A stretch of DNA of 64,000 nucleotides from Candidatus Nomurabacteria bacterium (GTDB taxonomy: Bacteria > Patescibacteriota > Minisyncoccia > Phycocordibacterales > UBA9973): the NCBI GenBank assembly GCA_052035405.1, contig JBPOHQ010000008.1, positions 32,893-96,892 on the forward strand. Direction: 5' to 3'. The position numbers were made by a program, and so were the translations under genes. Under the pieces are notes generated by a model. The model was not told the origin of the DNA and made no database searches. It was given only the letters and a program-made list of their open reading frames with translations. Below are positions 4,688 to 42,871 of this stretch, piece by piece. Each line of letters starts with the position of its first letter. Positions within the stretch are counted from its first letter, which is position 1.

Positions 4688-5107
4688 TTAATTTTGTGTT
4701 TCTTTTTGAAGATCTAAAACGTCTAAACTCCAGGCTAAGTCTCGAAGTTTTCCACCGTTTAGTCTCGGGTTGTGAATTTCTTGGGTGCTTGTTTCTGCTT
4801 GTATTGATTGCTGTTTTTTAACTTTTTTAACTTTTCTTTTCCATATAAAAAGTTTATCTTGTAGGGCATATTTAATTCCTGCTTCAAGCATAAAAACAAA
4901 GGGCTTACTGTTTGGTTTATAGAAAGTAAGTGCTAGTGAAAAAGCTGCAACGGCAAGCATGGGAATGATTCCAAAGATTAAACCAAGAAGTCTATATAGT
5001 ACAAAACAAATTCCAGCTCCACCAGCTAAATAAACAAACTCACTAAAGGTGAATGGTCCAAATATTTTATCTTCAATATCTAAAAATTGTGGAACTTTAA
5101 ATTGCAT
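4688..5107 (-). CDS. VirB3/PrgI/ConD-like small two-TM membrane protein
   Basis: 139 aa; two hydrophobic helices (FVYLAGGAGICFVLYRLLGLIFGIIPMLAVAAFSLALTFY); position directly upstream of the virB4-region genes matches Gram-positive T4SS gene order. Confidence 0.5.
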   Translation of the reverse strand: MQFKVPQFLDIEDKIFGPFTFSEFVYLAGGAGICFVLYRLLGLIFGIIPMLAVAAFSLALTFYKPNSKPFVFMLEAGIKYALQDKLFIWKRKVKKVKKQQSIQAETSTQEIHNPRLNGGKLRDLAWSLDVLDLQKETQN

Positions 5108-8837: not shown

Positions 8838-11243
8838 TTATCTTTTGTTGAAATAATATTCGTACGGATTTTTTGTCTTGAACGGTGAATTTATTCTTCG
8901 GGCATCGATAACTTTATTCTTGTAGTACTCGTATACGGTTAATTTATTTCCAGAGAGCCACAATTGATACGCAGATACATCAGGACGACTTACACGAATC
9001 TCTCTTAGGTCCGGACCTACGTATCCAAATGCTTTACCGAATACGTGTGCAAGGTCCCATGCGAATTGTTGCAAGTTGTCCCCCTCGGTGTAGCCATATT
9101 TTCTTTGGAATATTGGACTCTTTTTAATTCTTCTTGCGAAGACAGTCTCTACTCCTTCGTGATATCTGACAATATCATCATTGTCTGGTTCAAGAGTTTG
9201 TCCAATGATTGGTAAGTGTGGGCCAACAGGACCAACTGGTGTTGTATCTTGCCCATCCGGTATTCCATCATTATCATCATCAGTGTCTAAGTTGTTAGGT
9301 ATTCCATCTCCATCTGCATCATCATCGTCTACATTTGGTATACCGTCACCATCAAGATCTGTGTCTAAGGTGTTTGGCGTACCTCCTCCATCATAGTCTG
9401 TTGGAGTCCCAATTCCAGTAGGACTTCCGTCTAATAAATCAGGTATTCCATCATTGTCATCATCAGTATCAGTAGTATTAGGAATTCCATCTCCGTCAGT
9501 ATCATTGTCTAGGATGTTAGGAATTCCATCCCCGTCCATATCGGAATCTAGGATATTCGGTATTCCTCCACCGTCATAGTCAAAGGGTGTTCCTGTTGCC
9601 GTAGGACTACCATCAAGGAGATCCGGTATTCCATCATTGTCATCATCAGTATCAGTAGTATTAGGAATTCCATCTCCGTCAGTATCATTGTCTAGGATGT
9701 TAGGAATTCCATCCCCGTCTATATCAGAGTCAACAGTATTTAAAAAGCCATCCCCGTCAAAATCTGTAGGGTTCCCTCCATTAGTATTTCCGTCGCCATT
9801 TGGATTTGTTCCGTTTCCATTTCCATTTCCACTATCACTTCCTGTGCCATCATCTCCAACTCCATCGTCTCCAGGATTTCCATCGTCTCCGTTTCCTGTA
9901 TCGGTATACCCACCTGTTTCATTTGGTCCGTTTCCATTATTGTTTCCGCCAGTATTGTTACCACCAGTATTTCCTCCTCCTGGGTCATTTGGTCCACCTG
10001 GATCTATTGCTGGATCATTTCCATAATCAATGTTGTTTCCATTACCGTCGTTTCCTACACCGTTGCCAGGATTATATGGAGTTCCGATATAATCAACAGC
10101 ATCAGTCAGTCTAGTTTTAAAATCCAAAGTAGCACCATAAAATGTTTGTGTTGGACTACTACTGCCTGTTGTGTTTATTGTTTCAGCTACTGCACGGACA
10201 TTGTAAGGAGTGTTTTTTGTTAAACCAGAAAGCTTAAAGCTCATGGTTCCATAACTTTTTGTTTCATGAGTCACTTCTCCAACTTTAATCCAATTTAACT
10301 CGCTCTCTTTTTTATATTCAAAAAATGTTTTTACTTTTCTACTGGAACCATAAGAACCCTTTAAAAAAGCAGATTTTGAAGTTATTTCTGAAGGAAAATA
10401 AGTTATCACAGAAGTATGAGGACAAGATTGACATGGGTCTGTGTGAAAAGTAACGACGCCACCATACTTTATTTCAGTTGGTTTGCGTGCATCATTTGAA
10501 ACAACAGCACAGTATGAATACAGTGTGTCTGGTTCTAAGTTCGTTACATTAGCAAAAAAATTTCCTCCACCAGAAACTTTTCCATAAGCATCTGGTACTG
10601 TTGAAATTATTCCTATCATCTGAGAACCAAATATTTCATTGCAGAAAATAGGTGGTTTGTCTACTCTAGACAATCTAAAGTATCCATAGGCCAAGGATCC
10701 AGTACCACCGACTGAACCCTTTAGTACAACATCAGTATCAGTAAGACCTGTTACTGTGTGGGTTGTTACACCGCTTATTTGATTTCCACTACCGCTACCA
10801 GTGCTTCCTCCACCAGAAGGTGGAGTGACAAGAGTTTTAAAGTTTTTTACACTACCATAATATACTTCACTTCCACCAAAATAAAGTTGATTTTGGTCTG
10901 TTGTTGCTACCGCACAGTAATAATAAGTTGTATCTTGTTGTAAGTTACCTATTTGCTGATTAAGAGTATTTAGTGTTCCTGTTGTTGATGTGTTAAAAGT
11001 AATTGTAGAACTAGAGTAAAAGTTTGTCATATTATAACAACTAGTACTAGCTACTGTTGTATATCTGAAATTAGCATATACAGGAAAATTGTTATAGTTT
11101 GTGACTGTTCCAGAAAGTGTAGCCTGTGTGTCAGTTATGTTTGATGCTGAGTTGGTGTTTACTATCATATACCCAAAAGTTATTGCTGGTACAAGCAATA
11201 ACAGTAGCATGAGTATTTTTTTGTATATTTTTTTACCGTACAC
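8838..11243 (-). CDS. Large secreted or surface repeat protein with thrombospondin-type-3-like calcium-binding repeats (DTDGDGIPN / DDDNDGIPD)
   Basis: N-terminal anchor MYGKKIYKKILMLLLLLVPAITFG; a Gly/Asn-rich tract; repeated D-x-D-x-D-G-IP motifs; near-identical internal duplication. Confidence 0.6.
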   Translation of the reverse strand: MYGKKIYKKILMLLLLLVPAITFGYMIVNTNSASNITDTQATLSGTVTNYNNFPVYANFRYTTVASTSCYNMTNFYSSSTITFNTSTTGTLNTLNQQIGNLQQDTTYYYCAVATTDQNQLYFGGSEVYYGSVKNFKTLVTPPSGGGSTGSGSGNQISGVTTHTVTGLTDTDVVLKGSVGGTGSLAYGYFRLSRVDKPPIFCNEIFGSQMIGIISTVPDAYGKVSGGGNFFANVTNLEPDTLYSYCAVVSNDARKPTEIKYGGVVTFHTDPCQSCPHTSVITYFPSEITSKSAFLKGSYGSSRKVKTFFEYKKESELNWIKVGEVTHETKSYGTMSFKLSGLTKNTPYNVRAVAETINTTGSSSPTQTFYGATLDFKTRLTDAVDYIGTPYNPGNGVGNDGNGNNIDYGNDPAIDPGGPNDPGGGNTGGNNTGGNNNGNGPNETGGYTDTGNGDDGNPGDDGVGDDGTGSDSGNGNGNGTNPNGDGNTNGGNPTDFDGDGFLNTVDSDIDGDGIPNILDNDTDGDGIPNTTDTDDDNDGIPDLLDGSPTATGTPFDYDGGGIPNILDSDMDGDGIPNILDNDTDGDGIPNTTDTDDDNDGIPDLLDGSPTGIGTPTDYDGGGTPNTLDTDLDGDGIPNVDDDDADGDGIPNNLDTDDDNDGIPDGQDTTPVGPVGPHLPIIGQTLEPDNDDIVRYHEGVETVFARRIKKSPIFQRKYGYTEGDNLQQFAWDLAHVFGKAFGYVGPDLREIRVSRPDVSAYQLWLSGNKLTVYEYYKNKVIDARRINSPFKTKNPYEYYFNKR
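9421..9780. repeat. Tandem direct DNA repeat of about 180 bp (two copies, roughly 100 bp near-identical) encoding the DNDTDGDGIPNTTDTDDDNDGIPDLLDGSPT block
   Basis: 9421-9536 and 9601-9716 are almost identical by eye (ggaattccatctccgtcagtatcattgtctaggatgttaggaattccatccccgtc...). Confidence 0.7.
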
Positions 11244-18587: not shown

Positions 18588-20777
18588 TTATTTTATAATT
18601 TTAATTTGGTCTAATTTGTTTTGTTTAGCTGCTTCTTTTAGGGCCCTATTGACGTATTCTTCAATTGTTTCATCGTGTGAACCTACAGTGAAGGCACTTT
18701 TTTCTAAGGGTTCAAGTCCTGTTATATTATGAAGCTCAATAAAATATTTTATTAGACGAGAATATTCTGGGCTCCATGTTTCAGGTTTGTCTTTCATAAG
18801 TCCATAAATTACTTCAGCTTTAGTTTCTTTGATTGCATTCCAGTAATCCCCTTTAGGAAAAATTTGATCTAAATCATTATCTAGTTTTAATTCTACTTTT
18901 TTATCAATATCTGCCATAGACAATTCTGTATGTTCTACTGTTTCATATGAACCATGTCCCCCATATGTTGGATTGATTGCATATGAGTTTACGTTTTGAC
19001 CTTCTAGACTTTGAAAAGAGCCTGTTGCGTTTGCTTGTACAATTTCTTCATACGTTGGTTTAAACATTTGATCTGCTTCACTCGGCACAATGAGCTTTGG
19101 GGTAGAAGCAAAACGGACTTCGTTATTTTTAAGAAGTTCTTTATCTCTTATTTGTTCCTCCTCGTACATTGGATTAATCTTCTGAGTTGCATTAACTACT
19201 GCTTCAGGTTCTATATTTTCTTGTAAAAATGCATCTCGTTCTACGGGAACTCCGTTTATGTCAGCTAATGAGGATTCAGTTGGTGCATTTGAATGAACTG
19301 AGTTGGAAGATCCTCCTCCCTCAAAGGCTTTTATAACTTTCTCGCGATAGTATTCATAATCTTTTTCTATTCCTTGTTTTGTGTTAGGTTCAAAAAGATC
19401 TCCTTCTTTGTGAATTTCACTCGCTATACCATTTTGGTATTCTTGAACAATTGCTTTTCCTTCTTGATCTATTTTCAACACATATGCAGCTCCACCTTCG
19501 GCTTTTACTCGTACATCGCCGTCTTCTCCGATGTATCCGAGCTTCTTTCCTAGTTCTGCAAGGAATTTTACTTTATCAGGTGCTTGATCATAACCCAGAG
19601 CTTCAGCAAGCTTCGGATCAGCTTCGAGCTGTGACTTAAATGCATAGGTAATACCAATATTATTTTTACCATCTACTAGAGCTTCTTTTGGAATTTCAAA
19701 ATTTTCACTGTTAGTGGTAGACACTGCTGAAGTTGCAGGAGTTTCATTTGAAATTTGGGTACCGTCTTGTCCTTCTAAAATAGTTGGATCAGGAGTTGAT
19801 GTCTTAAATTCGTGAACTGGAATTTCTTCTGCTTCAGTATTCTCAAAGAGATGTATGTTTTTTATACCTTGTATTACCGCCTTTTTCGGTAAATTATCAA
19901 CACCAGTAGCTTGTATAGTAGTAGTTAAAAGTCCTGTACCCATACTGAAGGCTCCACCTGCAATCCTTTTCTTCCATTCCAGACCCTTGAGTTGTTTTTC
20001 TTTTTCTTCTACCTTTTTTGCAAGTTCAGGAAGTTTGTTGAGTACAGTATTTATATCAAAGATTTGTCCCGATGAGCCAAGTAACTCATTGGAAAAAACT
20101 TGCTCTTTTTCGGATTCACTTTCTTCAATTTTGTCTTTGAAATACTCATTTATTGTGAATCGCCCCAAAAAATTAGTAGCACTTAGCATTGTTGTAAGTG
20201 GACCTAATACCATTATTGCTACTGTCGCACCTCCTGTTGCCAGAGCAATTTTTAACCATTTTTTTTGTTTGGGTGTTAGTCCGTCATACCAGTCTTTAAG
20301 TTTTTTAGCGAATTCTTGTGCTTCGTTTGAGGCCATAACGGTATTTAGTCCAACCGCCGCGATTATTTTTGTAGAGATTTTAAATCCAGCTCCAAATAGG
20401 GTCGTAGCTGCTCCGAGTACGTCAGCTGTAGCTAGGGTTGCACCAGTGGTCATAGCCATACTTAGGATTGTCCTGGTTTTATTCTGGGCAGGGTCAAGTA
20501 TCCATTTTTCTGTTTTGAGCCACGTTTGCTTAAAAAAATTGCTAGATTCTAGTGTATCCTCTTGGAATTTTTGCCTTTCCTCAGTAAAGATTCTTTGGGC
20601 TATAAGTATTTTTTGTCCATTATTTAGTTGAGTGTTATTTGTAGATTCTTGTAGATTTATTTCGTTTCTTATTAGTGTTGCTACTTGTTCAAGGTCCATC
20701 TCTGGTTTTGCTTCTATGTTTGATTTAGGAGCAAATATATTTAATTTACTAAAAAATGGTTTTTTAGGGATAGACAT
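18588..20777 (-). CDS. Hypothetical large membrane-associated protein
   Basis: Ala/Gly/Thr-rich hydrophobic segments (ILSMAMTTGATLATADVLGAATTLFGAGF, IALATGGATVAIMVLGPLTTML); no enzymatic motif recognised. Confidence 0.45.
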   Translation of the reverse strand: MSIPKKPFFSKLNIFAPKSNIEAKPEMDLEQVATLIRNEINLQESTNNTQLNNGQKILIAQRIFTEERQKFQEDTLESSNFFKQTWLKTEKWILDPAQNKTRTILSMAMTTGATLATADVLGAATTLFGAGFKISTKIIAAVGLNTVMASNEAQEFAKKLKDWYDGLTPKQKKWLKIALATGGATVAIMVLGPLTTMLSATNFLGRFTINEYFKDKIEESESEKEQVFSNELLGSSGQIFDINTVLNKLPELAKKVEEKEKQLKGLEWKKRIAGGAFSMGTGLLTTTIQATGVDNLPKKAVIQGIKNIHLFENTEAEEIPVHEFKTSTPDPTILEGQDGTQISNETPATSAVSTTNSENFEIPKEALVDGKNNIGITYAFKSQLEADPKLAEALGYDQAPDKVKFLAELGKKLGYIGEDGDVRVKAEGGAAYVLKIDQEGKAIVQEYQNGIASEIHKEGDLFEPNTKQGIEKDYEYYREKVIKAFEGGGSSNSVHSNAPTESSLADINGVPVERDAFLQENIEPEAVVNATQKINPMYEEEQIRDKELLKNNEVRFASTPKLIVPSEADQMFKPTYEEIVQANATGSFQSLEGQNVNSYAINPTYGGHGSYETVEHTELSMADIDKKVELKLDNDLDQIFPKGDYWNAIKETKAEVIYGLMKDKPETWSPEYSRLIKYFIELHNITGLEPLEKSAFTVGSHDETIEEYVNRALKEAAKQNKLDQIKIIK

Positions 20778-20879: not shown

Positions 20880-21030
20880 CACACTAGGGTTGACTTGCCC
20901 GTCCGTATGGGCTACCCTTTATATGTACCTGGCAAGGCATCAGCCTTTCCTTCTGGTACACCCCCGTCTAGGAGCACGATTTTACGGATGAAAGGTAGTA
21001 TGACAGTAACCATCGCAAGAATTTTTTTAT
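20880..21030. other. GC-enriched, strongly self-complementary non-coding segment in the divergent intergenic region; candidate cis-regulatory RNA, class unassigned
   Basis: Nested inverted repeats agggt..gccc(gtccgtat)gggc..accct and gtacc..aggc(atca)gcct..ggtac within an otherwise AT-rich 360-bp spacer. Confidence 0.3.
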
Positions 21031-22268: not shown

Positions 22269-23018
22269 TTATTCGAGTAAAGTTAATGCGATCATTGCTC
22301 CGATACCAAGGAGAAGCATGATGACTTGGAGGATAAAATATCTTCCTCCTTTGGTCCTTTGTAGTTCTGGGATGAGGTCTCCTACGGCTATGTAAATAAA
22401 TCCTCCAGCCGCTATGGGTAAGATTATTTTTATGAAGTTTTCGCTCATGTCTCCTATTATAAAAACAAGGGCAAGTCCGAGCATGGCGGTCAATGCAGAC
22501 AGAAAATTAAGCCAAAGAGCTCGTGTTTTGCTGTAGCCACTATGAATAAGTACCGCAAAATCTCCTATCTCTTGGGGTATTTCGTGAAGTACGACCGCAA
22601 TGGTCGTTGCTATTCCGACAGGAATACTGATTAAAAAACTTGCTCCAATGACTATACCATCGACAAAATTATGAATACCATCTGAGAAGAGAACTAACTT
22701 ACCCACAGGGTGTATGTGGTATTCATCTGTGTCATCTTCGTGATGGTGCCAGTGTAAAAATTTCTCCAATATAAAAAATATAAATATCCCTAGTATGATA
22801 TACAGTCCAATTGTTGTTGGATTTGTCGCCTCTACGAAAGCTTCAGGAATCAGGTGGATAAAGGCATCTCCGAGTAATGCTCCAACTGCCAGACTAATAA
22901 AAAGAGAAATATATTTTTTAATTAAATCAGCTCGAAGAGAGAGTGTAAAAACTCCAACAAGTGAGATGAGACTTATCGCCGTGACACTTAAGAAAGAATA
23001 TAGATATGTTTCGTTCAT
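22269..23018 (-). CDS. zupT: ZIP-family zinc transporter
   Basis: HNFVDGIVIGASF and HEIPQEIGDFAVL motifs; polytopic membrane protein. Confidence 0.85.
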   Translation of the reverse strand: MNETYLYSFLSVTAISLISLVGVFTLSLRADLIKKYISLFISLAVGALLGDAFIHLIPEAFVEATNPTTIGLYIILGIFIFFILEKFLHWHHHEDDTDEYHIHPVGKLVLFSDGIHNFVDGIVIGASFLISIPVGIATTIAVVLHEIPQEIGDFAVLIHSGYSKTRALWLNFLSALTAMLGLALVFIIGDMSENFIKIILPIAAGGFIYIAVGDLIPELQRTKGGRYFILQVIMLLLGIGAMIALTLLE

Positions 23019-23099
23019 GTGATAAAGATACTATATCCTTAATGCAGTTTATTTGCAAGTAAAAGTTTGTTCAACTTTGATTATTTATGTGGATAAACA

Positions 23100-23660
23100 A
23101 AAGTGACAAGTGTTTTAGTCTCTGGTAGGATGTGCTTATAGTATTGGTTTTTTGATAATTAAAACTTGGCTAGGGCAAAAGAAATAGTGTTTAATATAGT
23201 TATTGAGTACTATTTCTTTTGTCTTGCCATGACAAAGAAAGTATCCAGATGGGTTGTGTCCCATTTTCTGTTTCCGCCTGGAGACAAAAATTAACCCAAT
23301 GACAGGGTTAGTCTGGTGCTTTCTTTTAAGAAAGATATTTGTTTTGGGGTTCCCCCAGGTAAGCGTGTGACGCCCTATCGTCACACAAACTGCCTGGGGT
23401 TTCCAGAACTAAAAAGAATGTTAGATAAGTAAGCACTCAGGGGGAGCCTGGTACAAAGGTTCTGGGTTCCCTTTTTGCTTCATCTGACAAGAGGTAAGAT
23501 TAGCGGTTCTTCCAGCTCTGCTGAAAAGTGGTGGCTGGATTTGTTGAAAAATCCTCTCCATTTTGGAGAGTAAAGATACGAGACAGAAGAAAAGATCCAA
23601 ATAAAATGTGTTGTGCGACTTGGTAGCAATTATCAAGTCGCATTTTTATTTATTTAATTA
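23100..23660 (+). ncRNA. Candidate structured non-coding RNA of unknown class, ending at an intrinsic terminator
   Basis: About 550 nt with no credible ORF; multiple nested helices (ccccagg...cctgggg, gtgtgacg..cgtcacac, ctttctt..aagaaag); terminator gcgactt-N13-aagtcgc followed by a T-run at 23615-23652. Confidence 0.25.
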
Positions 23661-23681
23661 ATTGAATTGTGGATAACTATT

Positions 23682-23708
23682 TTGCATACTTTTTTAAAGT
23701 GGTATAAT
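23682..23708 (+). promoter_or_regulatory. Sigma70-like promoter (TTGCAT-N15-TGgTATAAT, extended -10) driving the multi-hairpin RNA
   Basis: ttgcat at 23682-23687; tggtataat at 23700-23708. Confidence 0.5.
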
Positions 23709-23714
23709 TAATAC

Positions 23715-24090
23715 AGAGATAAAAAAGTTGTTCGACAAACAAGAAGAGAGAGATGTAGGAAATAGTATTTAATTCTTTGAATACTGCTTCCTATATCTAC
23801 CCCTTCTATGATATAGAAAAAAATGCATCTAACGATGCAAACTATCGCCACCACGTGGCAACCAAAAAACTGTTACAATTGTAACAATTTAATTTAATCG
23901 CTAATTATATTAGCAAACCGTTTCCCGCTCTTTCGAGCAAAAAAATTGTTGATTATTATCAACACCTGTTCTTTCTAAAAATAGCTAACATCTGTTAGCA
24001 AAACTCATATAGTCACTTCGGTGACAACATCTATCGCATATTTTATATGCACTACAACCCAGCAAAAAATCGCTGGGTTTTTTGTTTGTA
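23715..24090 (+). ncRNA. Candidate novel non-coding RNA of about 375 nt made of about 12 different short hairpins (12-26 nt palindromes) at roughly 27-nt spacing, bounded by a promoter and a terminator
   Basis: No ORF; palindromes at 23764, 23791, 23824, 23847, 23871, 23900, 23927, 23948, 23984, 24012, 24036 and 24058, including a perfect 16-mer tgttacaattgtaaca and a UUCG-loop hairpin gtcacttcggtgac. Confidence 0.4.
24058..24086 (+). terminator. Rho-independent terminator (cccagc-N8-gctggg followed by TTTTTT)
   Basis: Hairpin plus T-run read directly. Confidence 0.75.
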
Positions 24091-24100
24091 TTTTTAAATT

Positions 24101-24129
24101 TTGCTAAAAAACCAATAACAAGCTATAAT
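24101..24129 (+). promoter_or_regulatory. Consensus sigma70-like promoter TTGCTA-N17-TATAAT upstream of tRNA-Pro
   Basis: ttgcta at 24101-24106; tataat at 24124-24129. Confidence 0.55.
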
Positions 24130-24154
24130 CATAGAGTTTTCAGTAAGAAGTATT

Positions 24155-24225
24155 CGGGCTGTAGTATACCGGTAGTACAAGCGCTTTGGGAGCGTTTAGA
24201 CTGGGTTCGATTCCCAGCAGCCCGA
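24155..24225 (+). tRNA. tRNA-Pro (anticodon UGG); CCA not encoded
   Basis: Cloverleaf by hand: acceptor cgggctg/cagcccg, anticodon loop tttggga, T-arm ctggg-ttcgatt-cccag. Confidence 0.85.
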
Positions 24226-24269
24226 CAAAGATTGAATTATTTAATCTTATTTGATAATATAAAAATATT

Positions 24270-24340
24270 GCGGGATTAGTTTAATGGTAAAATAACAGTT
24301 TTCCAAACTGTGGTTGGGAGTTCGATTCCCCCATCCCGCA
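24270..24340 (+). tRNA. tRNA-Gly (anticodon UCC); CCA not encoded
   Basis: Acceptor gcgggat/atcccgc, anticodon stem acagt/actgt with loop tttccaa, T-loop ttcgatt. Confidence 0.8.
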
Positions 24341-24364
24341 CACCAATAGGCATGTTTTAGACAA

Positions 24365-25273
24365 CTACTTGCTGTTTAATTCATTAACTCTTTTATTGTA
24401 AATATTTATAAAAGCATCAAGTGTTTCCGTTTTAAATGCTAATATTTTTAGCATTACTGGGTCACCTTGTTTTATTTTATCAGCCAAGAGAAGAGATTCT
24501 CTTTGATCTTGAAGCGAAGTTATAAAAGAATAAAATATACTCAATTCTGTTTTTGTTATTGTATTTTCTTCGGCAGGATTATTTTCAGCTAGTTTTTTAT
24601 ATTGTTTATCTGAAAGGTCAAAGTAAAACACAGGCATGTTTTTTAAGGGTGTTAAAATCATTTCTTTATTCTTTATCTTGATTCCATATTTTAAGTCTGC
24701 ACCTCCACTCTCAACAATGGCAAGAGTTTTATCAGCTTTTTTAATTGTAAGAGGCAACGCTCCTTCTGATAGTTCTCTATTGTCTTCAAGTAGACTATCA
24801 AGAGCACAAATTGTTTTACCTGTTTTTTTATTTACAATAATAAAGTCTGTGCCAGCCTCGTAGTCATCATAGCTTGCAGTACGCATAACCAGAAAGTCAT
24901 CGCCCAGCACTTTATTTAAAAGTATAGTTACCATAATTTCTGTTTGAGTACCATTCCTCCTCATCTTATCTTCTCGCCATCTGTTTAAGCAACGATCTTG
25001 TGAAGTAGGATCTTCCGAGTGACATTTTGCAAAACTTAATTCCCTTTTTCTTATAGTTGCTTTATCTTTCTCAATTTCTTCTTTTGAATAAATTCCACCA
25101 TTATCTAGCATAAAGGCATCCATTGAAACGGACCCATCTGTTTTTATTAAATTTTGCTTTCCGTACTCTTCCTCTATTCTTTTATTATTTTCGTTAGAAA
25201 TAAACGAAAGCCTTTTTCGTAGCTTTACACTTAGGTGCTCTAAGGCACTTTGTTCAGGTTTAAATTCTCCCAT
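24365..25273 (-). CDS. Hypothetical protein (302 aa)
   Basis: ORF track only; no motif recognised. Confidence 0.45.
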   Translation of the reverse strand: MGEFKPEQSALEHLSVKLRKRLSFISNENNKRIEEEYGKQNLIKTDGSVSMDAFMLDNGGIYSKEEIEKDKATIRKRELSFAKCHSEDPTSQDRCLNRWREDKMRRNGTQTEIMVTILLNKVLGDDFLVMRTASYDDYEAGTDFIIVNKKTGKTICALDSLLEDNRELSEGALPLTIKKADKTLAIVESGGADLKYGIKIKNKEMILTPLKNMPVFYFDLSDKQYKKLAENNPAEENTITKTELSIFYSFITSLQDQRESLLLADKIKQGDPVMLKILAFKTETLDAFINIYNKRVNELNSK

Positions 25274-25292
25274 TTATGTATTATACCTTATA

Positions 25293-25766
25293 TCATAAAA
25301 CAATATCAGAAATTACATTTATTTTTGCTTTTTTATGAGCTAGATCTAGATAAACCACCAGTAGATCCACTTGCCACCCCGTATCTTCTGAGATTCTATT
25401 GGACATAAGGTATGTCTGGATTGTCCGTGATAGACGCTTCAGTTTCCAAGGGTGCATGTTATCTTCAGGCCGATAATCATCCTTCTCGAACGTTTCATGT
25501 GGAACATTCTTTCCTTCTGTTTCATGAGAAACATTAGTTTTTGATGTTTCACGTGGCACAAATGAAGGTAATGTTACGCGTGAAACGCTTTTTACCTCAA
25601 TAAAATAGAGTTTTCCTTGTTTTTCAGCTATTATATCTATTTCACCCCATTTTTTAGTGTAGTTACGATCAATTACTGAGTAACCGTGTTTCACAAGAAA
25701 ATTAACGGCGATATTCTCGCCAATTTCTCCTGTTTTCTGGGTTTTTGAAGTAAAAACCTTTGGCAT
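25293..25766 (-). CDS. yraN: YraN/UPF0102-family endonuclease-like protein carrying an in-frame repeat insertion
   Basis: GEIGENIAVNFLVKHGYSVIDRNY..GEIDIIAEKQGKLYFIEVKS and a C-terminal GWQVDLLVV block fit UPF0102; an inserted segment VTLPSFVPRETSKTNVSHETEGKNVPHETFEKDDY is encoded by the palindrome array. Confidence 0.65.
   Translation of the reverse strand: MPKVFTSKTQKTGEIGENIAVNFLVKHGYSVIDRNYTKKWGEIDIIAEKQGKLYFIEVKSVSRVTLPSFVPRETSKTNVSHETEGKNVPHETFEKDDYRPEDNMHPWKLKRLSRTIQTYLMSNRISEDTGWQVDLLVVYLDLAHKKAKINVISDIVL
25491..25585. repeat. Array of four 14-bp palindromic elements at exact 27-bp spacing inside yraN (gtttcatgtggaac, gtttcatgagaaac, gtttcacgtggcac, gttacgcgtgaaac)
   Basis: Copies start at 25491, 25518, 25545 and 25572; the 27-bp period keeps the reading frame (9 codons). 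Confidence 0.8.
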
Positions 25767-25842
25767 GTATTAATTATACAAACAAAACGATAAAAATGTT
25801 ATATGTGTAACAAATCACAACTACGTTTTATAAATAATTAGT

Positions 25843-25856
25843 GTTTCATGTGGAAC
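25843..25856. repeat. Solo intergenic copy of the 14-bp palindromic element (gtttcatgtggaac, identical to the 25491 copy)
   Basis: Exact 14/14 match to the copy at 25491. Confidence 0.6.
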
Positions 25857-26039
25857 AAGAAGTTGGAAATGACAATTAGAGCCAATTCTATATTTTATAA
25901 GGGTTTTTTAGGTTACTTTGGTCTAAAAGACAAGATTTTTATGTCCGTTATGCACAATACCAACATAGTTATCCACAGTCTGTTAGTAAGTCCTTATTTT
26001 TTAATAACCACAAATATCAGTCATCAGAGACAAAATTTG

Positions 26040-26111
26040 TGCACCCGGAGGGATTCGAACCCCCAACGACGGTTCCGAAGACCGGCGTGATATCCATTTC
26101 ACTACGGGTGC
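26040..26111 (-). tRNA. tRNA-Arg (anticodon UCG, tentative); CCA not encoded
   Basis: Minus-strand cloverleaf: acceptor gcacccg/cgggtgc, D-arm gtga-aatggata-tcac, anticodon loop cttcgga with one C:U mismatch at the base of the anticodon stem, T-arm ggggg-ttcgaat-ccctc. Confidence 0.65.
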
Positions 26112-26132
26112 ATGGAATTAATCAACTTACAA

Positions 26133-26161
26133 AGTATAGCTTATTATGGTTTTTTAATCAA
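26133..26161 (-). promoter_or_regulatory. Sigma70-like promoter (TTGATT-N17-TATACT on the minus strand) upstream of tRNA-Arg
   Basis: Reverse complement of 26133-26161 reads ttgatt-aaaaaaccataataagc-tatact. Confidence 0.4.
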
Positions 26162-26224
26162 AAATATTTAGTGATGAAAGCTGAAACGCTATAATATTCA
26201 TATTTAATATGCTAAAAAAGAAAA

Positions 26225-26253
26225 TTGCAAATCGATAAGCAAAGTAATATAAT
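26225..26253 (+). promoter_or_regulatory. Consensus sigma70-like promoter TTGCAA-N17-TATAAT upstream of tRNA-Gly(GCC) and cca
   Basis: ttgcaa at 26225-26230; tataat at 26248-26253. Confidence 0.55.
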
Positions 26254-26289
26254 GATTTAGTTCTTTTATTTTTTATTATACATAACTAA

Positions 26290-26360
26290 GCGGTTATGGT
26301 TTAGTGGTAGAACACGTCCTTGCCAAGGATGAGACGGGAGTTCGATTCTCCCTAGCCGCA
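26290..26360 (+). tRNA. tRNA-Gly (anticodon GCC); CCA not encoded
   Basis: gcggtta...cacgtccttgccaaggatg... close to the canonical tRNA-Gly(GCC) anticodon arm; T-loop ttcgatt. Confidence 0.85.
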
Positions 26361-26371
26361 CAAATTCCAAG

Positions 26372-27964
26372 GTGGAACAAAATACTAAAAATTTAAAAAC
26401 AAAGATACCTAAAGAGGTTTCACATGTAACAAAAAACCTAGAAGAAGCTGGTTTTGATGTTTTTCTTGTTGGAGGGTGCGTAAGAGATATTTTAATGAAT
26501 AAAGAGCCTAAAGATTGGGATCTGACTACCAACGCTACTCCAGAACAGATTATTCCATTGTTCGACAAGACTGTGTACGAGAATAACTTCGGAACGGTAG
26601 CTGTTTGCGTGCCACGTGAAACAAAAAATACCTTTGTTCCGCATGAAACAGGAGTTTTTGATGTTTCACGTGGCACAAATGGTTCAACTAATAAAAATGT
26701 TACACATGTAACAGAAGAAAGTGTTCCACATGAAACGCTAGAATATGAGATAATTGAGGTTACTCCATATAGAACCGAGACAAAATACAGTGATTTTAGA
26801 CATCCCGATGAAGTAAAATTCAGCGATAAACTAGAAGATGATCTAAAAAGACGTGATTTTACAGTAAATGCTATGGTTATGGACTCTCAGGGTCATGTGC
26901 AGGATCTGTATAATGGTTTAACGGACATAAAGGACAAAATTTTAAGGACAGTAGGAGAGCCAGACGAGAGATTTAACGAAGATGCACTTAGAATGTTAAG
27001 AGCTGTTCGTTTTGCTTGCCAGCTTGGATTTTCTATTTCACATGAAACATCTGAAAGCATGTTTCGAAATGCCGATTTAATAAAAAAGATATCCACAGAG
27101 AGGATTCGTGATGAATTTTCAAAGATAATCATGTCACCGACTCCGGCCGCTGGAGTGGTTATGTTACAAAAATTTGGATTATTAAAACATGTTATTCCTG
27201 AGTTAGAGGAGGGTATAGGATGTGTTCAAGGTGGTGCACATATATACGATGTGTGGGAACATTTGTTAATGGCTCTCCAGCACGCTGCAGATAAAAATTG
27301 GCCATTTGAAATTCGTTTTGCCGCACTTATGCATGACATAGGTAAACCGAGAACTCGAAGACCTGGAGAAAAGAAAGCCTATACTTTCTACGGACATGAA
27401 GTCGTGGGTGCACGAATGGCGAAGAAAATAATGGAGAGATTAAAATATTCTAGAAAAGAAACAGAACTAGTGGAGATTTTTGTCCGAACTCACATGTTTT
27501 TCTCTGATACAGAGAAAATAACTCTCTCTGCTGTACGGAGAATTATTGCGAAAGTTGGAAAAGAAAATATTTGGTTACTTATGAATATTCGTGAGTGTGA
27601 CCGAGTCGGCATGAAAAAAACAGAAGCACCGTATAGATTACGTAAATACTTTGCCATGATAGAAGAAGCTCTTCGTGATCCTATTTCTGTGAAACAGCTT
27701 AAAATTGACGGAAGTTACATGATTAACATGTTACACATGAAACCTGGACCCCGCATGGGCTGGATGTTAAACGCTTTACTTGAAGAAGTTCTAGAAGATC
27801 CGACAAAGAATGAAATTGAGTATTTAAAAAATAAAATTCTAGAATTAGAAAAACTTGAGGATAAAGATTTACGAGAACTTGGCGAGAAAGGGAAAGAAGC
27901 AAAAGAAGAATTAGAAGAAGAAGAAATAGAAAAATTACATGCTAAGCATGGGGTAAAAAAATAA
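26372..27964 (+). CDS. cca: CCA-adding tRNA nucleotidyltransferase (polymerase-beta head plus HD domain) with in-frame palindromic-repeat insertions; GTG start 12 nt after tRNA-Gly
   Basis: FLVGGCVRDILMNKEPKDWDLTT, RRDFTVNAM, HD motif LMHDIGKP; an atypical inserted segment VCVPRETKNTFVPHETGVFDVSRGTNGSTNKNVTHVTEESVPHETLEYE. Confidence 0.85.
   Translation: MEQNTKNLKTKIPKEVSHVTKNLEEAGFDVFLVGGCVRDILMNKEPKDWDLTTNATPEQIIPLFDKTVYENNFGTVAVCVPRETKNTFVPHETGVFDVSRGTNGSTNKNVTHVTEESVPHETLEYEIIEVTPYRTETKYSDFRHPDEVKFSDKLEDDLKRRDFTVNAMVMDSQGHVQDLYNGLTDIKDKILRTVGEPDERFNEDALRMLRAVRFACQLGFSISHETSESMFRNADLIKKISTERIRDEFSKIIMSPTPAAGVVMLQKFGLLKHVIPELEEGIGCVQGGAHIYDVWEHLLMALQHAADKNWPFEIRFAALMHDIGKPRTRRPGEKKAYTFYGHEVVGARMAKKIMERLKYSRKETELVEIFVRTHMFFSDTEKITLSAVRRIIAKVGKENIWLLMNIRECDRVGMKKTEAPYRLRKYFAMIEEALRDPISVKQLKIDGSYMINMLHMKPGPRMGWMLNALLEEVLEDPTKNEIEYLKNKILELEKLEDKDLRELGEKGKEAKEELEEEEIEKLHAKHGVKK
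26417..26430. repeat. Single copy of the 14-bp palindromic element (gtttcacatgtaac) near the 5' end of cca
   Basis: Encodes VSHVT in the cca frame. Confidence 0.55.
26609..26736. repeat. Array of five 14-bp palindromic elements inside cca (starts 26609, 26636, 26663, 26699, 26723; spacings 27, 27, 36, 24, all multiples of 3)
   Basis: gtgccacgtgaaac, gttccgcatgaaac, gtttcacgtggcac, gttacacatgtaac, gttccacatgaaac. Confidence 0.8.
27714..27743. repeat. Degenerate copy plus intact copy of the palindromic element (gttacatgattaac ... gttacacatgaaac) near the 3' end of cca
   Basis: Read directly; encodes MINMLHMKPG. Confidence 0.5.
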
Positions 27965-41049: not shown

Positions 41050-42102
41050 ATGTCTGCAGTTACTGGGTTAAAATCTAATTTAATAAATTTGTCGAACAAG
41101 CGTCCTCTTTCAGGCACTAAAGAATCTCTGAAATTTATTGATTTTTGTGCTGGGATTGGTGCTGGACGTATCGGCTTGGAAAAAAATGGACTAACTTGTG
41201 TTGGATTTTCTGAAATAGACAAACAAGCTGAATTAACTTATAGAAAGCTTTTTGGTGATGAGGAAATAAATTACGGAGATTTGATGAAAATAGACGCAAA
41301 CAAGTTGCCTGATTTTGATATGATGATTGCCGGCTTTCCTTGTCAAAGTTTTTCCGTTATTGGTCAAAGAAAGGGTATGCAAGATGAACGTGGGCAGATT
41401 ATTTATGGCCTTACTAAGATAATGCGTTCAAAAAATCTCAAATACTTTATCTTAGAAAATGTGAAGGGGCTTACTAATCATGAAAAAGGTAATTCACTCA
41501 AGATTATTTTAAACGAATTAGACAGGGTTGGGTATAAAGTTTTCCATAAAGTGTTGAATAGCATTGACTACGGTGTACCGCAAATGCGTGAGAGAATTTA
41601 CCTTGTTGGTATTAGAAAGGATTTAGTGCCTAAAAATTTTGAATTTAATTTTCCAGAACCTCAATCAAAAGTAGACGTAAAACATTACTTAATTGATCCA
41701 AGGGAGTCTGAATTTAAAGAAAATAAAGTTGTTTATGCAACATTTTTAAGATATCTAAAAAATAAGTACAACAATAATCAGTATTCCGTTAAGAGTTTTC
41801 TTAAACAAGAATATGTAATATTGGACACAAGGCAGTCTGATTTAAGGATTTATCATAATAGAGTGCCTACTCTCAGGACAGGTAGACATGGTATTTTATA
41901 TGTAAGAGATGGAAAATTTAGAAAACTATCCGGAGTTGAGTCTTTGTTGTTGCAAGGTTTTCCTAAAGATCTTATTAAGAGAGTAGATGGATATATCAAT
42001 GAAAATTATCTGCTGAAGCAGGCTGGGAATGCTATGACTGTTAACACTATTGAAGCTATTTCTAGAGAGTTGTTTAAGACATTGAAAAAATATGAACAAT
42101 AA
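41050..42102 (+). CDS. DNA (cytosine-5)-methyltransferase
   Basis: Motif I DFCAGIGAG, motif IV GFPCQSFS, ENVKGL, QAGNAM; layout resembles M.MspI/HpaII-type enzymes (specificity not assigned). Confidence 0.9.
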   Translation: MSAVTGLKSNLINLSNKRPLSGTKESLKFIDFCAGIGAGRIGLEKNGLTCVGFSEIDKQAELTYRKLFGDEEINYGDLMKIDANKLPDFDMMIAGFPCQSFSVIGQRKGMQDERGQIIYGLTKIMRSKNLKYFILENVKGLTNHEKGNSLKIILNELDRVGYKVFHKVLNSIDYGVPQMRERIYLVGIRKDLVPKNFEFNFPEPQSKVDVKHYLIDPRESEFKENKVVYATFLRYLKNKYNNNQYSVKSFLKQEYVILDTRQSDLRIYHNRVPTLRTGRHGILYVRDGKFRKLSGVESLLLQGFPKDLIKRVDGYINENYLLKQAGNAMTVNTIEAISRELFKTLKKYEQ

Positions 42103-42871
42103 AAAGAAAAACCAGAAAGAAATGGTGGCTCTTGGCTCAAAAACCGCAAAGGGCGGGTTTGCAAACGAGCAGGACGTTATTAATCGATTTAATAATTGGA
42201 AGACCGATATGATTGCTCAAGAATGGTTAGCAGAAATGAATTACAAAATAGACGATATTGAGTTTGTGCAAGCTTCAAAAGTGAAAGGTCAATATAAAGC
42301 CGATATTCAGGTTAGGATAACTATATTAATAAAACAACAATCTCAAGAGGATGTGCAGAATTTACAGGTGAAGCTCGTGAGTAATCCGCAAGGATTTAAT
42401 CAAATAGATAAAAGATGGGTTGATAAATATGTGGAACTTTGGAATATCCCCGCTGACGTATCAAGGATACTTAAGCTTTTTACTGGTGAAATAGCTTCCT
42501 CAAAAAGCGGTTTAAGAGATCCGCGAAGAATGTTTTTAGATGAAATGAGTGTGTCTGACCAAGATAAACTTATAAAATTTATAGAGGGAAACAAGATCTT
42601 GATTATTTCAGATTTATTAAAAGGTAGAGGGGAATTTTCTGCAGATTGGACATTGGTTATTTTAAAAGTTACAGGAGATGATGCTTGGGTTTTAAGATCA
42701 GTAAATCACGTTATGAATGTTTTTGGTTCAGGTGAAGTCCTAATTACTCGTAAGGGTAGTTTGAATATTGGTAATATTACCATGCAAAGAAAAGGGGGAG
42801 ATGGAGGTCGCAAAACAGCTCAAATGCTTCAATTTAAAATAAATCCTGTCTTGTTATTTGATAGTAAATAA
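42092..42871 (+). CDS. Putative type II restriction endonuclease partner of the m5C methyltransferase (MspI-like?)
   Basis: Start overlaps the MTase stop by 11 nt; C-terminal RKGGDGGRKTAQMLQFK loosely resembles the MspI C-terminus; identity tentative. Confidence 0.45.
   Translation: MNNKKKNQKEMVALGSKTAKGGFANEQDVINRFNNWKTDMIAQEWLAEMNYKIDDIEFVQASKVKGQYKADIQVRITILIKQQSQEDVQNLQVKLVSNPQGFNQIDKRWVDKYVELWNIPADVSRILKLFTGEIASSKSGLRDPRRMFLDEMSVSDQDKLIKFIEGNKILIISDLLKGRGEFSADWTLVILKVTGDDAWVLRSVNHVMNVFGSGEVLITRKGSLNIGNITMQRKGGDGGRKTAQMLQFKINPVLLFDSK

Follow-up and report, generated by a model that had tools for sequence, protein, structure and literature searches.

The 64-kb stretch of DNA analysed here (the window) carries, between a ZIP metal-transporter gene on the minus strand (22269-23018) and a pair of tRNA genes on the plus strand (tRNA-Pro and tRNA-Gly, 24155-24341), 1.1 kb of DNA (23019-24154) without a credible open reading frame (ORF). 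The right-hand part of this non-coding stretch is a chain of short, mutually different hairpins that runs from a promoter to a terminator on the plus strand and is referred to as the array in the following; the left-hand part holds a second non-coding unit, RNA-A. An earlier note on this DNA had described the array as a stand-alone non-coding transcription unit. This description is borne out by a comparison of six alleles, all of which keep the promoter, a conserved 5' domain and the terminator despite differing neighbours and a differing orientation of the tRNA genes. We are highly confident that the array is a real structured RNA gene and that it represents an undescribed family. It belongs with the structured small RNAs of bacteria.

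Layout and distribution of the array gene

The array is preceded by a sigma-70-type promoter on the plus strand (23682-23708) that consists of the -35 element TTGCAT (23682-23687), a 15-nt spacer and the extended -10 element TGgTATAAT (23700-23708). The near-consensus promoter that had been proposed is thus present, and it is kept in the homologs; a promoter scan reads it as TTTGCA-16-TATAAT plus an upstream TG. Five nucleotides 5' of the -35 element lies a DnaA-box-like sequence, TGTGGATAA (23668-23676, plus strand), which is a perfect match to the reverse complement of the DnaA-box consensus TTATCCACA. Transcription is predicted from the spacing to the -10 element to start at A23715, since the distance from the -10 element to the start then equals that of leaderless mRNAs of this genome, such as tgTATAATtaatacATG of a YraN-like gene. 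No AUG is found after the predicted start, and no ORF of more than 48 amino acids (aa) is present on either strand of the array region; a small ORF or a leaderless mRNA is excluded by the missing 5' AUG and the missing ORF. The terminator scan identified an intrinsic terminator, AACCCAGC-aaaaaauc-GCUGGGUU (aacccagc-N8-gctgggtt, 24056-24079, plus strand), followed by UUUUUUG to position 24086. The canonical terminator of the earlier note is therefore in place, and its estimate of about 375 nt free of ORFs agrees well with a plus-strand unit of ~372 nt whose U-tract end is predicted near 24086.

All eleven hairpins listed in the earlier note, as well as the terminator, were located on the plus strand. 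The leader AGAGAUAAAAAAGUUGUUCGACAAACAAGAAGAGAG (23715-23750) opens the conserved 5' domain and is followed by M1, a long and irregular stem-loop with 21 bp (AGAUGUAGGAA-A-UAGUAUUUAA-uucu-UUGAAUACUG-C-UUCCUAUAUCU, 23751-23798) within whose span the previously listed agtatt..aatact is found (23764-23785). M2 (23791-23818) can adopt the form CUAUAUC-N12-GAUAUAG (ctatatc..gatatag, 23791-23816), in competition with the 3' arm of M1, or that of a small hairpin, UUCUAU-gau-AUAGAA; its loop is rich in C (CCCCUUCU). The subsequent modules are M3, UGCAUC uaac GAUGCA (tgcatcTAACgatgca, 23824-23839); M4, GCCAC cac GUGGC (gccacCACgtggc, 23847-23859); M5, UGUUAC aauu GUAACA (tgttacaATtgtaaca, 23871-23886); M6, GCUAAU uau AUUAGC (gctaatTATattagc, 23900-23914); M7, GCUC uuuc GAGC (gctcTTTCgagc, 23927-23938); M8, UGUUGAU uauu AUCAACA (tgttgatTATTatcaaca, 23947-23964); M9, GCUAAC aucu GUUAGC (gctaacaTCtgttagc, 23984-23999); M10, GUCAC uucg GUGAC (gtcacTTCGgtgac, 24012-24025); and M11, GCAUAU uuu AUAUGC (gcatatTTTatatgc, 24036-24050). 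The body of the RNA accordingly comprises six to nine short hairpins, depending on the allele, with stems of 4-7 bp and loops of 2-9 nt, plus the terminator, and these are joined by linkers of 4-19 nt that are made up of A, C and U.

With 12 perfect stems (6 bp or longer) within 400 nt the array is the maximum of the window, in which the next-densest spot has 7 such stems and the average is ~2 per 400 nt. The plus-strand RNA folds with -113.5 kcal/mol as compared to -58.2 +/- 4.8 kcal/mol for dinucleotide shuffles (z = -11.5). A long-range helix of the 5' leader with the 3' tail, which is part of the global minimum-energy fold, was rejected because no compensatory support for it was seen; the module plan obtained by local folding is identical across the alleles. 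The hairpins are non-identical and a direct-repeat search found no repeats, in agreement with the former statement that they do not constitute a simple repeat family. The spacing of 27 nt that had been ascribed to them stands as a mean (~26 nt from centre to centre) and fails as a strict period, as the distances range from 20 to 36 nt and are better described as a pitch. A period common to the array and the in-frame arrays of the neighbourhood, which had been suggested as well, is no more than a rough coincidence, the parS sites described further below being spaced at exactly 27 bp.

Other assemblies were reached via ZIP proteins that match that of the window exactly or nearly, and they yielded five further array alleles: L082/L083 (same species as the window, ZIP protein identical), L100 (ZIP identical at 245/250 residues), L091 (ZIP 84% identical), L086/L087 (82%) and L090 (80%). 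Every allele keeps the box at the -35 element, the promoter, the 5' domain of ~105 nt, the chain of short hairpins and the terminator, after which UUUUUGUUUG follows; the number and the sequence of the hairpins vary. The box itself is unchanged in 6/6 alleles (the listing of the homologs gives it as TGTGGATAAC). The array gene directly adjoins the ZIP gene in L086 and L091, and a single ORF lies in between in L090. Depending on the locus the downstream neighbour is the tRNA pair or a small membrane ORF; L086 and L091 have the tRNA genes on the opposite strand, and the array of L090 and L091 is followed by a small ORF that possesses a promoter of its own. These differences in neighbours and tRNA orientation indicate that the array is an independent unit and no tRNA leader. 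The latter possibility was dismissed because the tRNA genes are inverted in L086 and L091 and are driven by their own promoter, and the adjacency of the tRNA cluster, which had been pointed out before, is without functional meaning in view of this inversion and of the small ORF that takes this place in L090 and L091.

The small ORF that follows the array terminator at positions ~100-1 of L090 and 612-412 of L091 (reverse complement in both cases) has a conserved promoter (ttgacat..tagttgtataact) and codes for a hydrophobic product, of 66 aa in L091. It was considered as a conserved partner and discarded, as it is without a relative in the window.

The array gene is not present at this locus in L093, L094, L088 and L097 (ZIP 72-77% identical) nor in L005 (ZIP 64% identical), and a BLAST search with the 1.1-kb non-coding stretch against 80 loci of ZIP relatives found nothing; the gene is restricted to loci with a ZIP identity of at least ~80%. 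Within 0.87 Mb of related loci such a hairpin chain was detected only in array alleles (L081-L083); seven other high-scoring regions that were inspected turned out to be tRNA or origin regions, and the top scorers were taken as runs of N. A pattern scan of metagenomes matched one contig, which was already among the loci collected, and neither scans of viral contigs nor BLAST searches of phages and plasmids gave a match to the array. At the gathering threshold of Rfam 15 only the tRNAs of the window pass. When E-values of up to 10 were permitted for positions 23000-24400 the best matches were microRNA models with 21-23 bits as opposed to thresholds of 47, and nothing credible was obtained over the array; searches of L082, L086, L090 and L091 were also without a match. 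The absence of a known RNA family, on which the earlier note had remarked, is thereby corroborated for Rfam at both gathering and permissive thresholds.

Selection on paired positions

The alleles differ in their stems mostly in a way that preserves pairing. M1 is nearly invariant and M2 is kept in all alleles. M3 reads UGACAC/GUGUCA in L082, L086, L091 and L100, which amounts to three compensatory pair changes relative to the window; M5 reads UGUGAC/GUCACA in L082, L090 and L086, again a compensatory change. The M4 stem is conserved, with GUGGU in L082 giving rise to a plus-strand G-U pair and with the loops cac, uau or cau. M6 is GCUAUU/AAUAGC in L082 (compensatory) and is reduced to 4 bp in L090 and L086. 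M8 differs by two compensatory changes between L100 (GUUAAC/GUUAAC) and the window (GUUGAU/AUCAAC) and has a loop of 3 nt in L090. M9 occurs as ACUAAC/GUUAGU in L090 and L086, as GUUGAC/GUCAAC in L100, and with a loop enlarged by 5 nt and a U-G pair in L082. M10 is GACAC/GUGUC in L082 and L091 (compensatory), its loops having 4 or 5 nt. Modules are gained and lost, because M7 is confined to the window and L100 (GCUCA uuuu UGAGC in L100) and does not occur in L082, L086, L090 and L091. M11 is missing from L082, L086 and L091, its place being taken by GACAC ucac GUGUC in L090, and L091 carries a different module set. The stems of the terminator have been swapped wholesale among the homologs, CCCAGC/GCUGGG versus CCCAAACA/UGUUUGGG or CCCAACAA/UUGUUGGG; the terminator loop (c)aaaaaauc is retained in L082, L090 and L091, L086 has another terminator hairpin, and the U-tract is found in all alleles.

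For the quantification of these changes a curated, stem-only alignment (A10) of six alleles with 7 helices and 40 pairs was used, because a MAFFT alignment of the full arrays misplaces modules as a consequence of their gain and loss. Changes on both sides were counted in 11/40 pairs and are spread over 6/7 helices, so that the co-variation of the hairpins across strains, which had been put forward as a check, does exist. The covariation score of 0.218 compares to 0.088 +/- 0.018 for shuffles, and 0/500 shuffles reached this value. The plain MAFFT alignments A1 and A9 likewise show the double substitutions, without any curation. In A10, 97.2% of the cells are paired as compared to 22-49% in slid controls, a percentage that is biased upward because the stem alignment was curated from predicted hairpins.

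The sequence comparison also distinguishes between the strands. One-sided stem changes result in G-U pairs of the plus strand (M4, M8 and M9 of L082; M1 of L100), and M1 contains three invariant G-U pairs, which would turn into C-A mismatches on the minus strand. With a covariance model of the 5' domain, 110-128 bits are obtained in forward and 40-50 bits in reverse direction. Judging by these substitution patterns, the hairpins are under selection as RNA structure of the plus strand. An array of intrinsic terminators for minus-strand transcription arriving from the right would be a different reading of the same hairpins, and T-runs do follow 4/11 hairpins on the minus strand, two of which are called terminator-like. 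We consider the probability of this reading as next to negligible: 7/11 hairpins are without a T-run, the G-U pairs as well as the model scores point to the plus strand, the promoter and the terminator are conserved on the plus strand, and the convergent tRNA operon of L086 is equipped with a bidirectional terminator of its own.

Loop lengths differ among the alleles (from 4 to 3 nt in M8, from 4 to 5 nt in M10 and from 4 to 9 nt in M9). Operator sites in double-stranded DNA with a fixed spacing of half-sites are therefore not compatible with the array, and such sites, as suggested by the resemblance of a homologous M5 to TGTGA-N6-TCACA and of M8 to TTGAT-N4-ATCAA, were rejected on these grounds.

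Proposed function of the RNA

The unpaired parts of the array are poor in G. In five alleles, G accounts for 4/408 linker positions (1%) and 5/185 loop positions (3%), as compared to 24% in the stems and 18% in the genome (binomial P = 4e-30); the linkers consist of 52% A, 24% C and 23% U. Since loops and linkers diverge most, the unpaired parts conserve their composition and not their sequence: in most allele pairs the divergence amounts to 5-24% for stems, 29-56% for loops and 29-39% for linkers. The exception is the comparison of the window with L100, in which 18% of stem, 15% of linker and 8% of loop positions are changed. The tetranucleotide AUCG is enriched at linker-stem junctions of the window (4 versus 1.1 expected; reached by 10/500 shuffles) and occurs 3 times versus 1.0 expected in L082 (43/500); no enrichment was found in L091, L090 and L086.

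The best explanation overall, which we put forward tentatively, is that the RNA forms a long-lived chain of hairpin beads that resists RNases and serves as a multivalent scaffold or sponge with a 5' handle. Each hairpin of the body would fold independently as one bead. Burial of G in the stems would prevent mispairing and leave few preferred sites for RNase Y, an enzyme which in Staphylococcus aureus cuts single strands rich in A/U preferentially on the 3' side of G (PMC4608709). The serial hairpins and the terminator could stall 3' exonucleases such as PNPase. The chain might then offer its short hairpins with their A-rich tails to a factor that reads shape and not sequence, the conserved 5' domain might act as a specific handle, and expression might be tied to DnaA via the predicted box at the -35 element. 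RNase Y, PNPase, an NYN-domain protein and an enzyme of the CCA-adding/poly(A) polymerase family are all encoded in the window. That the body has been selected for stability appears to us evenly balanced between true and false; that the RNA is a scaffold or sponge is conceivable and at present doubtful.

In architecture the array comes closest to bacterial sponge RNAs of the CsrB/RsmZ and CrcZ types. CsrB and RsmZ are likewise stand-alone promoter-to-terminator RNAs of 100-370 nt with many short hairpins, the number of modules varies by species and the stems vary with pairing kept. In contrast to the array, they repeat GGA or ANGGA in loops and linkers, and a CsrA-type sponge was rejected for want of GGA motifs. 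CrcZ and CrcY, Hfq-sequestering RNAs of Pseudomonas that carry AAnAAnAA motifs (PMC4063720), are non-coding RNAs of ~400 nt with A-rich single strands between stem-loops; they act by titrating a protein. They possess several AAnAAnAA motifs, unlike the array with 0-6 per allele and none in L082 and L086, and as for CsrB/RsmZ no Rfam match connects the two; a CrcZ-type sponge was rejected because the A-rich motif is inconsistent among the alleles. No Pfam match to Hfq was obtained among the ORFs scanned in the 64-kb window and in short contigs, a scan in which small ORFs were left out.

Transcribed palindrome clusters were compared as well. REP325 and naRNA4 of E. coli, for which structure is said to count more than sequence, are an example of such a cluster (PMC4550694), and their role is disputed (bioRxiv 10.64898/2026.03.23.713779). 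Repetitive extragenic palindromic (REP) sequences and bacterial interspersed mosaic elements (BIME) resemble the array in that palindromic units with linkers are transcribed into a hairpin RNA; they differ from it as dispersed copies of one family, whereas the hairpins of the array are all distinct and come with their own promoter and a conserved 5' domain. The possibility that the array could be a remnant of such a cluster was not substantiated, since its hairpin types were not found at any other place of the 64-kb window; GNCAC-N3-5-GTGNC, GTTGAT..ATCAAC and CTAAC..GTTAG are confined to the array. The RNAs of ToxI (a type III antitoxin) and of CRISPR arrays are also transcribed, short structured units between a promoter and a terminator, yet they are near-identical direct repeats beside toxin or cas genes, and neither is found at the array. 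A REP/BIME cluster, a ToxI-like array and a CRISPR array were all rejected for lack of repeats and of dispersal.

Several observations speak against the long-lived scaffold or sponge. In fold-aware shuffles of the variable part 3/200 had as few unpaired G as the array, so that the depletion is of moderate significance only. The motif ANGGA occurs 0 times in five alleles and GGA 1-3 times, which is not above shuffles, so that a motif of the sponge type was not found; the counts of AAnAAnAA are inconsistent (1 in the window, 0 in L082, 6 in L091, 4 in L090 and 0 in L086). The higher divergence of loops and linkers than of stems disfavours a sequence-specific binder of single strands. No conserved partner protein is encoded beside the array in any locus. 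The preference of RNase Y was measured in Staphylococcus aureus and would have to apply to Patescibacteria, too. Start, end and stability of the array RNA are all things that we infer, and the family is known from six alleles of a single narrow, uncultured clade.

As far as we know, the non-coding RNAs described so far in Patescibacteria (candidate phyla radiation) are very few, and a literature search found no hairpin-chain RNA for this group. The unusual traits of the array are its non-identical hairpins without a common motif, the limitation of G to stems, a shared handle and a fast modular turnover within a species. It offers a natural case of RNA structure being retained while sequence turns over. 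If the proposal is true, a shape-based sponge or decoy array would constitute a mode of RNA function so far undescribed in bacteria.

The handle itself deserves closer consideration. The 5' domain of ~105 nt comprises the leader (AAAAAAGUUGUUCGACAAAC...), M1 and M2 and is 84-95% identical across lineages. Within the leader, GUUGUUCGA is unchanged in the aligned array alleles, GUUGUUCGAC is present in all except L086, and the purine-rich part is slightly variable. A paralog of this domain forms the first ~105 nt of RNA-A, the neighbouring structured non-coding unit of ~510 nt (23138-23650, plus strand; fold z = -10.1). Scans place a promoter of RNA-A at 23103-23131 and its terminator at 23613-23643, both on the plus strand, and a TGTGGATAA box at 23088-23096 (plus strand) precedes the -35 element of RNA-A by 6 nt in the same layout as at the array promoter. 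A covariance model (R2) that had been built from the 5' domains of the arrays alone matched an RNA-A' of L090 with 39.6 bits (E = 2.9e-5), RNA-A of the window (23138-23243) with 30.1 bits (E = 0.0028) and RNA-A of L082 with 28.4 bits (E ~0.006). M1 of the L090 paralog RNA-A' shows a compensatory change from UA to CG in addition to several one-sided changes. RNA-A is present in L098, too, is diverged in L090 and was not found in L086 and L091; its 3' part (23501-23600) is strongly different in L100. No Rfam family matched RNA-A. As the 5' domain heads two different RNAs, the handle can be regarded as a reusable module that is placed before different bodies.

These properties could also mean that the 5' domain is the working part of the RNA, either bound by a protein or pairing with a target, and that the chain of hairpins serves as a 3' tail for protection and drifts freely. 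Such a division of labour would account for the 84-95% identity of the domain in lineages whose ZIP proteins are 80-84% identical, for its reuse as the opening of another RNA whose body is quite different, and for the free variation of the body in module number and sequence. We nevertheless consider it unlikely. One terminator hairpin suffices to stabilise known small RNAs, and ten hairpins that are maintained by compensation, together with a strict exclusion of G, argue for selection on the body itself. A related candidate, in which the C-rich loop of M2 is an anti-Shine-Dalgarno seed, was rejected as the genes of this genome are nearly without a Shine-Dalgarno motif.

Module turnover and the putative origin region

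The array has changed much faster than its surroundings. Between the window and L082, 0-1 differences per 100 nt were counted over most of the 5.3 kb compared, with 1/750 positions in the ZIP gene and 2/~580 in RNA-A, and the five 100-nt bins of 23601-24100 contain 12, 10, 28, 54 and 51 differences plus gaps. Between the window and L100 there are 12-21 differences per 100 nt in 23801-24000 on a background of ~1. The alleles are mosaics: L082 combines M3 of L086, M5 of L090/L086 and the last module and terminator of L091, and L100 shares the upstream spacer, M3 and the M3-M4 linker with L082 and M5, M6, M10, M11 and the terminator with the window, in addition to private compensatory changes in M8 and M9. 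The M3-M5 stretch of the window is almost identical to that of L090, despite a ZIP identity of only 80%. We read this pattern as frequent recombination acting on a segment with a weakly constrained primary sequence, for which the conserved 5' domain and the tRNA genes could serve as homology arms; diversifying selection on the array is possible.

Pockets of 5-15% divergence within a background of 99-100% identity are also found at 19501-19600, 20601-20700 and 20901-21000, and in L100 at 22801-22900 and 23001-23100. A further pocket of L100 is situated at 23501-23600. Small pockets of this kind demonstrate that recombination tracts are common in the population.

The rapid turnover could alternatively be the outcome of an arms race, with the hairpins as decoys or immunity determinants against hairpin-specific nucleases or phage RNA-binding proteins and with selection for diversity. 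The three alleles within one species show a local divergence of 10-50% on a background of ~1%, mosaic alleles are common to several lineages (e.g. L082 with M3 of L086 and the terminator of L091), and stems have changed more (18%) than loops (8%) and linkers (15%) between the window and L100. This must be set against the absence of a linked defence gene, toxin or nuclease at any array locus, the absence of array matches in viral contigs, phages and plasmids, and the fact that, in most allele pairs, stems are conserved better than loops and linkers; as the divergence pockets nearby illustrate, recombination tracts are frequent here even without special selection. We regard an arms-race or identity locus of this kind as highly improbable. 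Its most elaborate version, to which we likewise grant only a slim chance, would be a hypervariable RNA locus for identity or immunity in an episymbiotic Patescibacterium, in which exchangeable decoy hairpins on a conserved handle have been diversified by recombination in an arms race. This locus was maybe born from a transcribed tandem parS array, in view of the common pitch of ~27 nt, the A-rich spacers and the alignment of M5 plus linker to a parS unit (26684-26713).

All relatives of the ZIP protein belong to Paceibacterota/Nomurabacteria-like metagenome-assembled genomes of uncultured Patescibacteria; among species representatives the best match is 69% identical. The minimum of the GC skew and a switch of gene orientation at ~20-26 kb, the DnaA boxes and a conserved stretch at 25948-25977 place an origin nearby, so that the array gene is ~2 kb away from a putative oriC and a cluster of parS sites. 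Perfect matches to the DnaA-box consensus are located at 23088, 23668 and 25969 and a box with one mismatch at 25948; no dnaA gene is present in the window. The putative oriC core (25770-26035) contains TTATGCACA and TTATCCACA at a distance of 12 nt, followed by GGACA..TGTC and an AT-rich stretch, and lies beside tRNA genes. The layout of the core around 25948-25977 is conserved in other Paceibacterota (L003, ~2680-2760; L008, ~4960-5040; L014, ~3690-3770), where parS-like palindromes follow as well.

The position of the array next to the putative origin opens another explanation, namely that DnaA-controlled transcription near the origin is what matters, for example for local supercoiling or for bounding the spreading of ParB, and that the RNA is a by-product which folds fast and has linkers poor in G so that R-loops are avoided. 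A DnaA-box consensus abuts the -35 element in all alleles and likewise at RNA-A, and the skew minimum and orientation switch at 20-26 kb, the two DnaA boxes at 25948-25977, where the sequence is also conserved among other Paceibacterota, and 14 parS-like sites at 25.5-27.7 kb would fit with such a role. However, an almost invariant 5' domain of 105 nt with conserved G-U pairs is hard to explain for an RNA without a role, relatives with 76-77% ZIP identity keep the same neighbourhood without the array gene, and a single box is no evidence of DnaA binding. We therefore rate this explanation as distinctly unlikely. The DnaA box at the promoter and the proximity of the putative origin and centromere would point to a possible link between replication and RNA in organisms with tiny genomes, RNase Y-dependent decay and apparently leaderless mRNAs.

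The palindromic element of the earlier note, GTTNCAYRTGNAAC, is the consensus of the chromosomal ParB site parS, tGTTNCACGTGAAACa (PMC7022226). It matches the window 15 times with at most one mismatch as compared to 0.65 matches expected; 14/15 of these sites fall within 25492-27743 and none into the array. Two hairpins of the array had been described as close relatives of this palindrome. This is true for M5 of the window and L100, which matches the parS consensus at 14/16 positions, but the likeness of M4 and M5 is lost in the homologs, M5 having four mismatches in L082, L086 and L090. The earlier speculation that the array is a diversified master locus of the palindrome family therefore does not hold: the palindrome is parS and is clustered at the putative origin, and the resemblance of M4 and M5 to it is not conserved. 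When M5 is taken together with the linker 5' of it, its alignment to the parS unit at 26684-26713 surpasses those of 300/300 shuffles; this is suggestive only, because each match within a palindrome counts twice.

On this basis the array might be seen as an element at the DNA level, i.e. a diverged tandem parS array, a set of palindromic protein sites or a series of cruciforms, with the transcript being incidental. Its pitch of ~26 nt resembles the exact 27-bp parS pitch at 25492-25573 and 26609-26663, M5 matches the consensus and M5 plus linker the unit at 26684-26713 as stated, and M4 contains CCACGTGG. Such an element is extremely improbable in our opinion. The changes in loop length among the alleles would destroy the half-site spacing for a dimeric DNA-binding protein, only one strand tolerates G-U pairs, M4 and M5 no longer resemble parS in L082, L086 and L090, and the array is flanked by a conserved promoter and a conserved terminator. 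Tandem parS sites and the array have in common a pitch of ~27 bp, A-rich spacers, a distance of 2-3 kb from each other and the similarity of M5, whereas parS sites are double-stranded DNA of fixed geometry and the array modules span 12-18 nt, vary in length and keep pairing through G-U. We conclude from these features that the array is not a parS array and that it may share ancestry with one.

The parS sites of the window form two tandem arrays with an exact pitch of 27 bp in frame with coding sequence, one in a UPF0102/YraN-like ORF (25492-25586, minus strand) and the other in the ORF of a CCA-adding enzyme (26609-26736, plus strand), whose units read V-P-R-E-T, V-P-H-E-T and V-S-R-G-T. Tandem centromere sites within coding sequence are unusual.

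Leaderless mRNAs seem to be the rule in the host genome, as far as promoter positions can tell. Shine-Dalgarno motifs are nearly absent from the 53 ORF starts of the window (GGAG and GAGG 0, AGGA 1), and many TATAAT boxes end 5-8 nt before the ATG, among them those of the genes that start at 2051, 15280, 25273, 25766, 28617, 41050, 56075 and 62416. The tRNA-Pro/tRNA-Gly pair and its promoter (24101-24341) are inverted in the lineage of the window, L082 and L100 relative to L086 (2134-2319), L091, L093 and L094. Just 5' of the ZIP gene the conserved motif (t)AAATGCAn5-6TTTGCAAGT was found in the regions read of the window (23030-23060), L086, L090, L093, L094 and L088. It is probably an operator of the Zur/Fur type, and in L097 a FUR-family gene is located directly 5' of the ZIP gene.

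Further features of the window lie at some distance from the array. Coding tandem repeats with units of 183 and 39 nt at 9382-9725 belong to a protein of 801 aa with thrombospondin type-3-like repeats, and a 9-nt repeat with the consensus CAAGGACCT (also CTGGAGCAA) at 53157-53245 codes for a possibly collagen-like segment of a 1269-aa ORF. A TraG/VirD4-like P-loop ATPase is encoded at 2090-3952 among large proteins without a Pfam match. A cytosine-5 DNA methylase and an R.HinP1I-like endonuclease at 41050-42871 constitute a restriction-modification pair, the specificity of which we take to be GCGC from the name of the R.HinP1I family.

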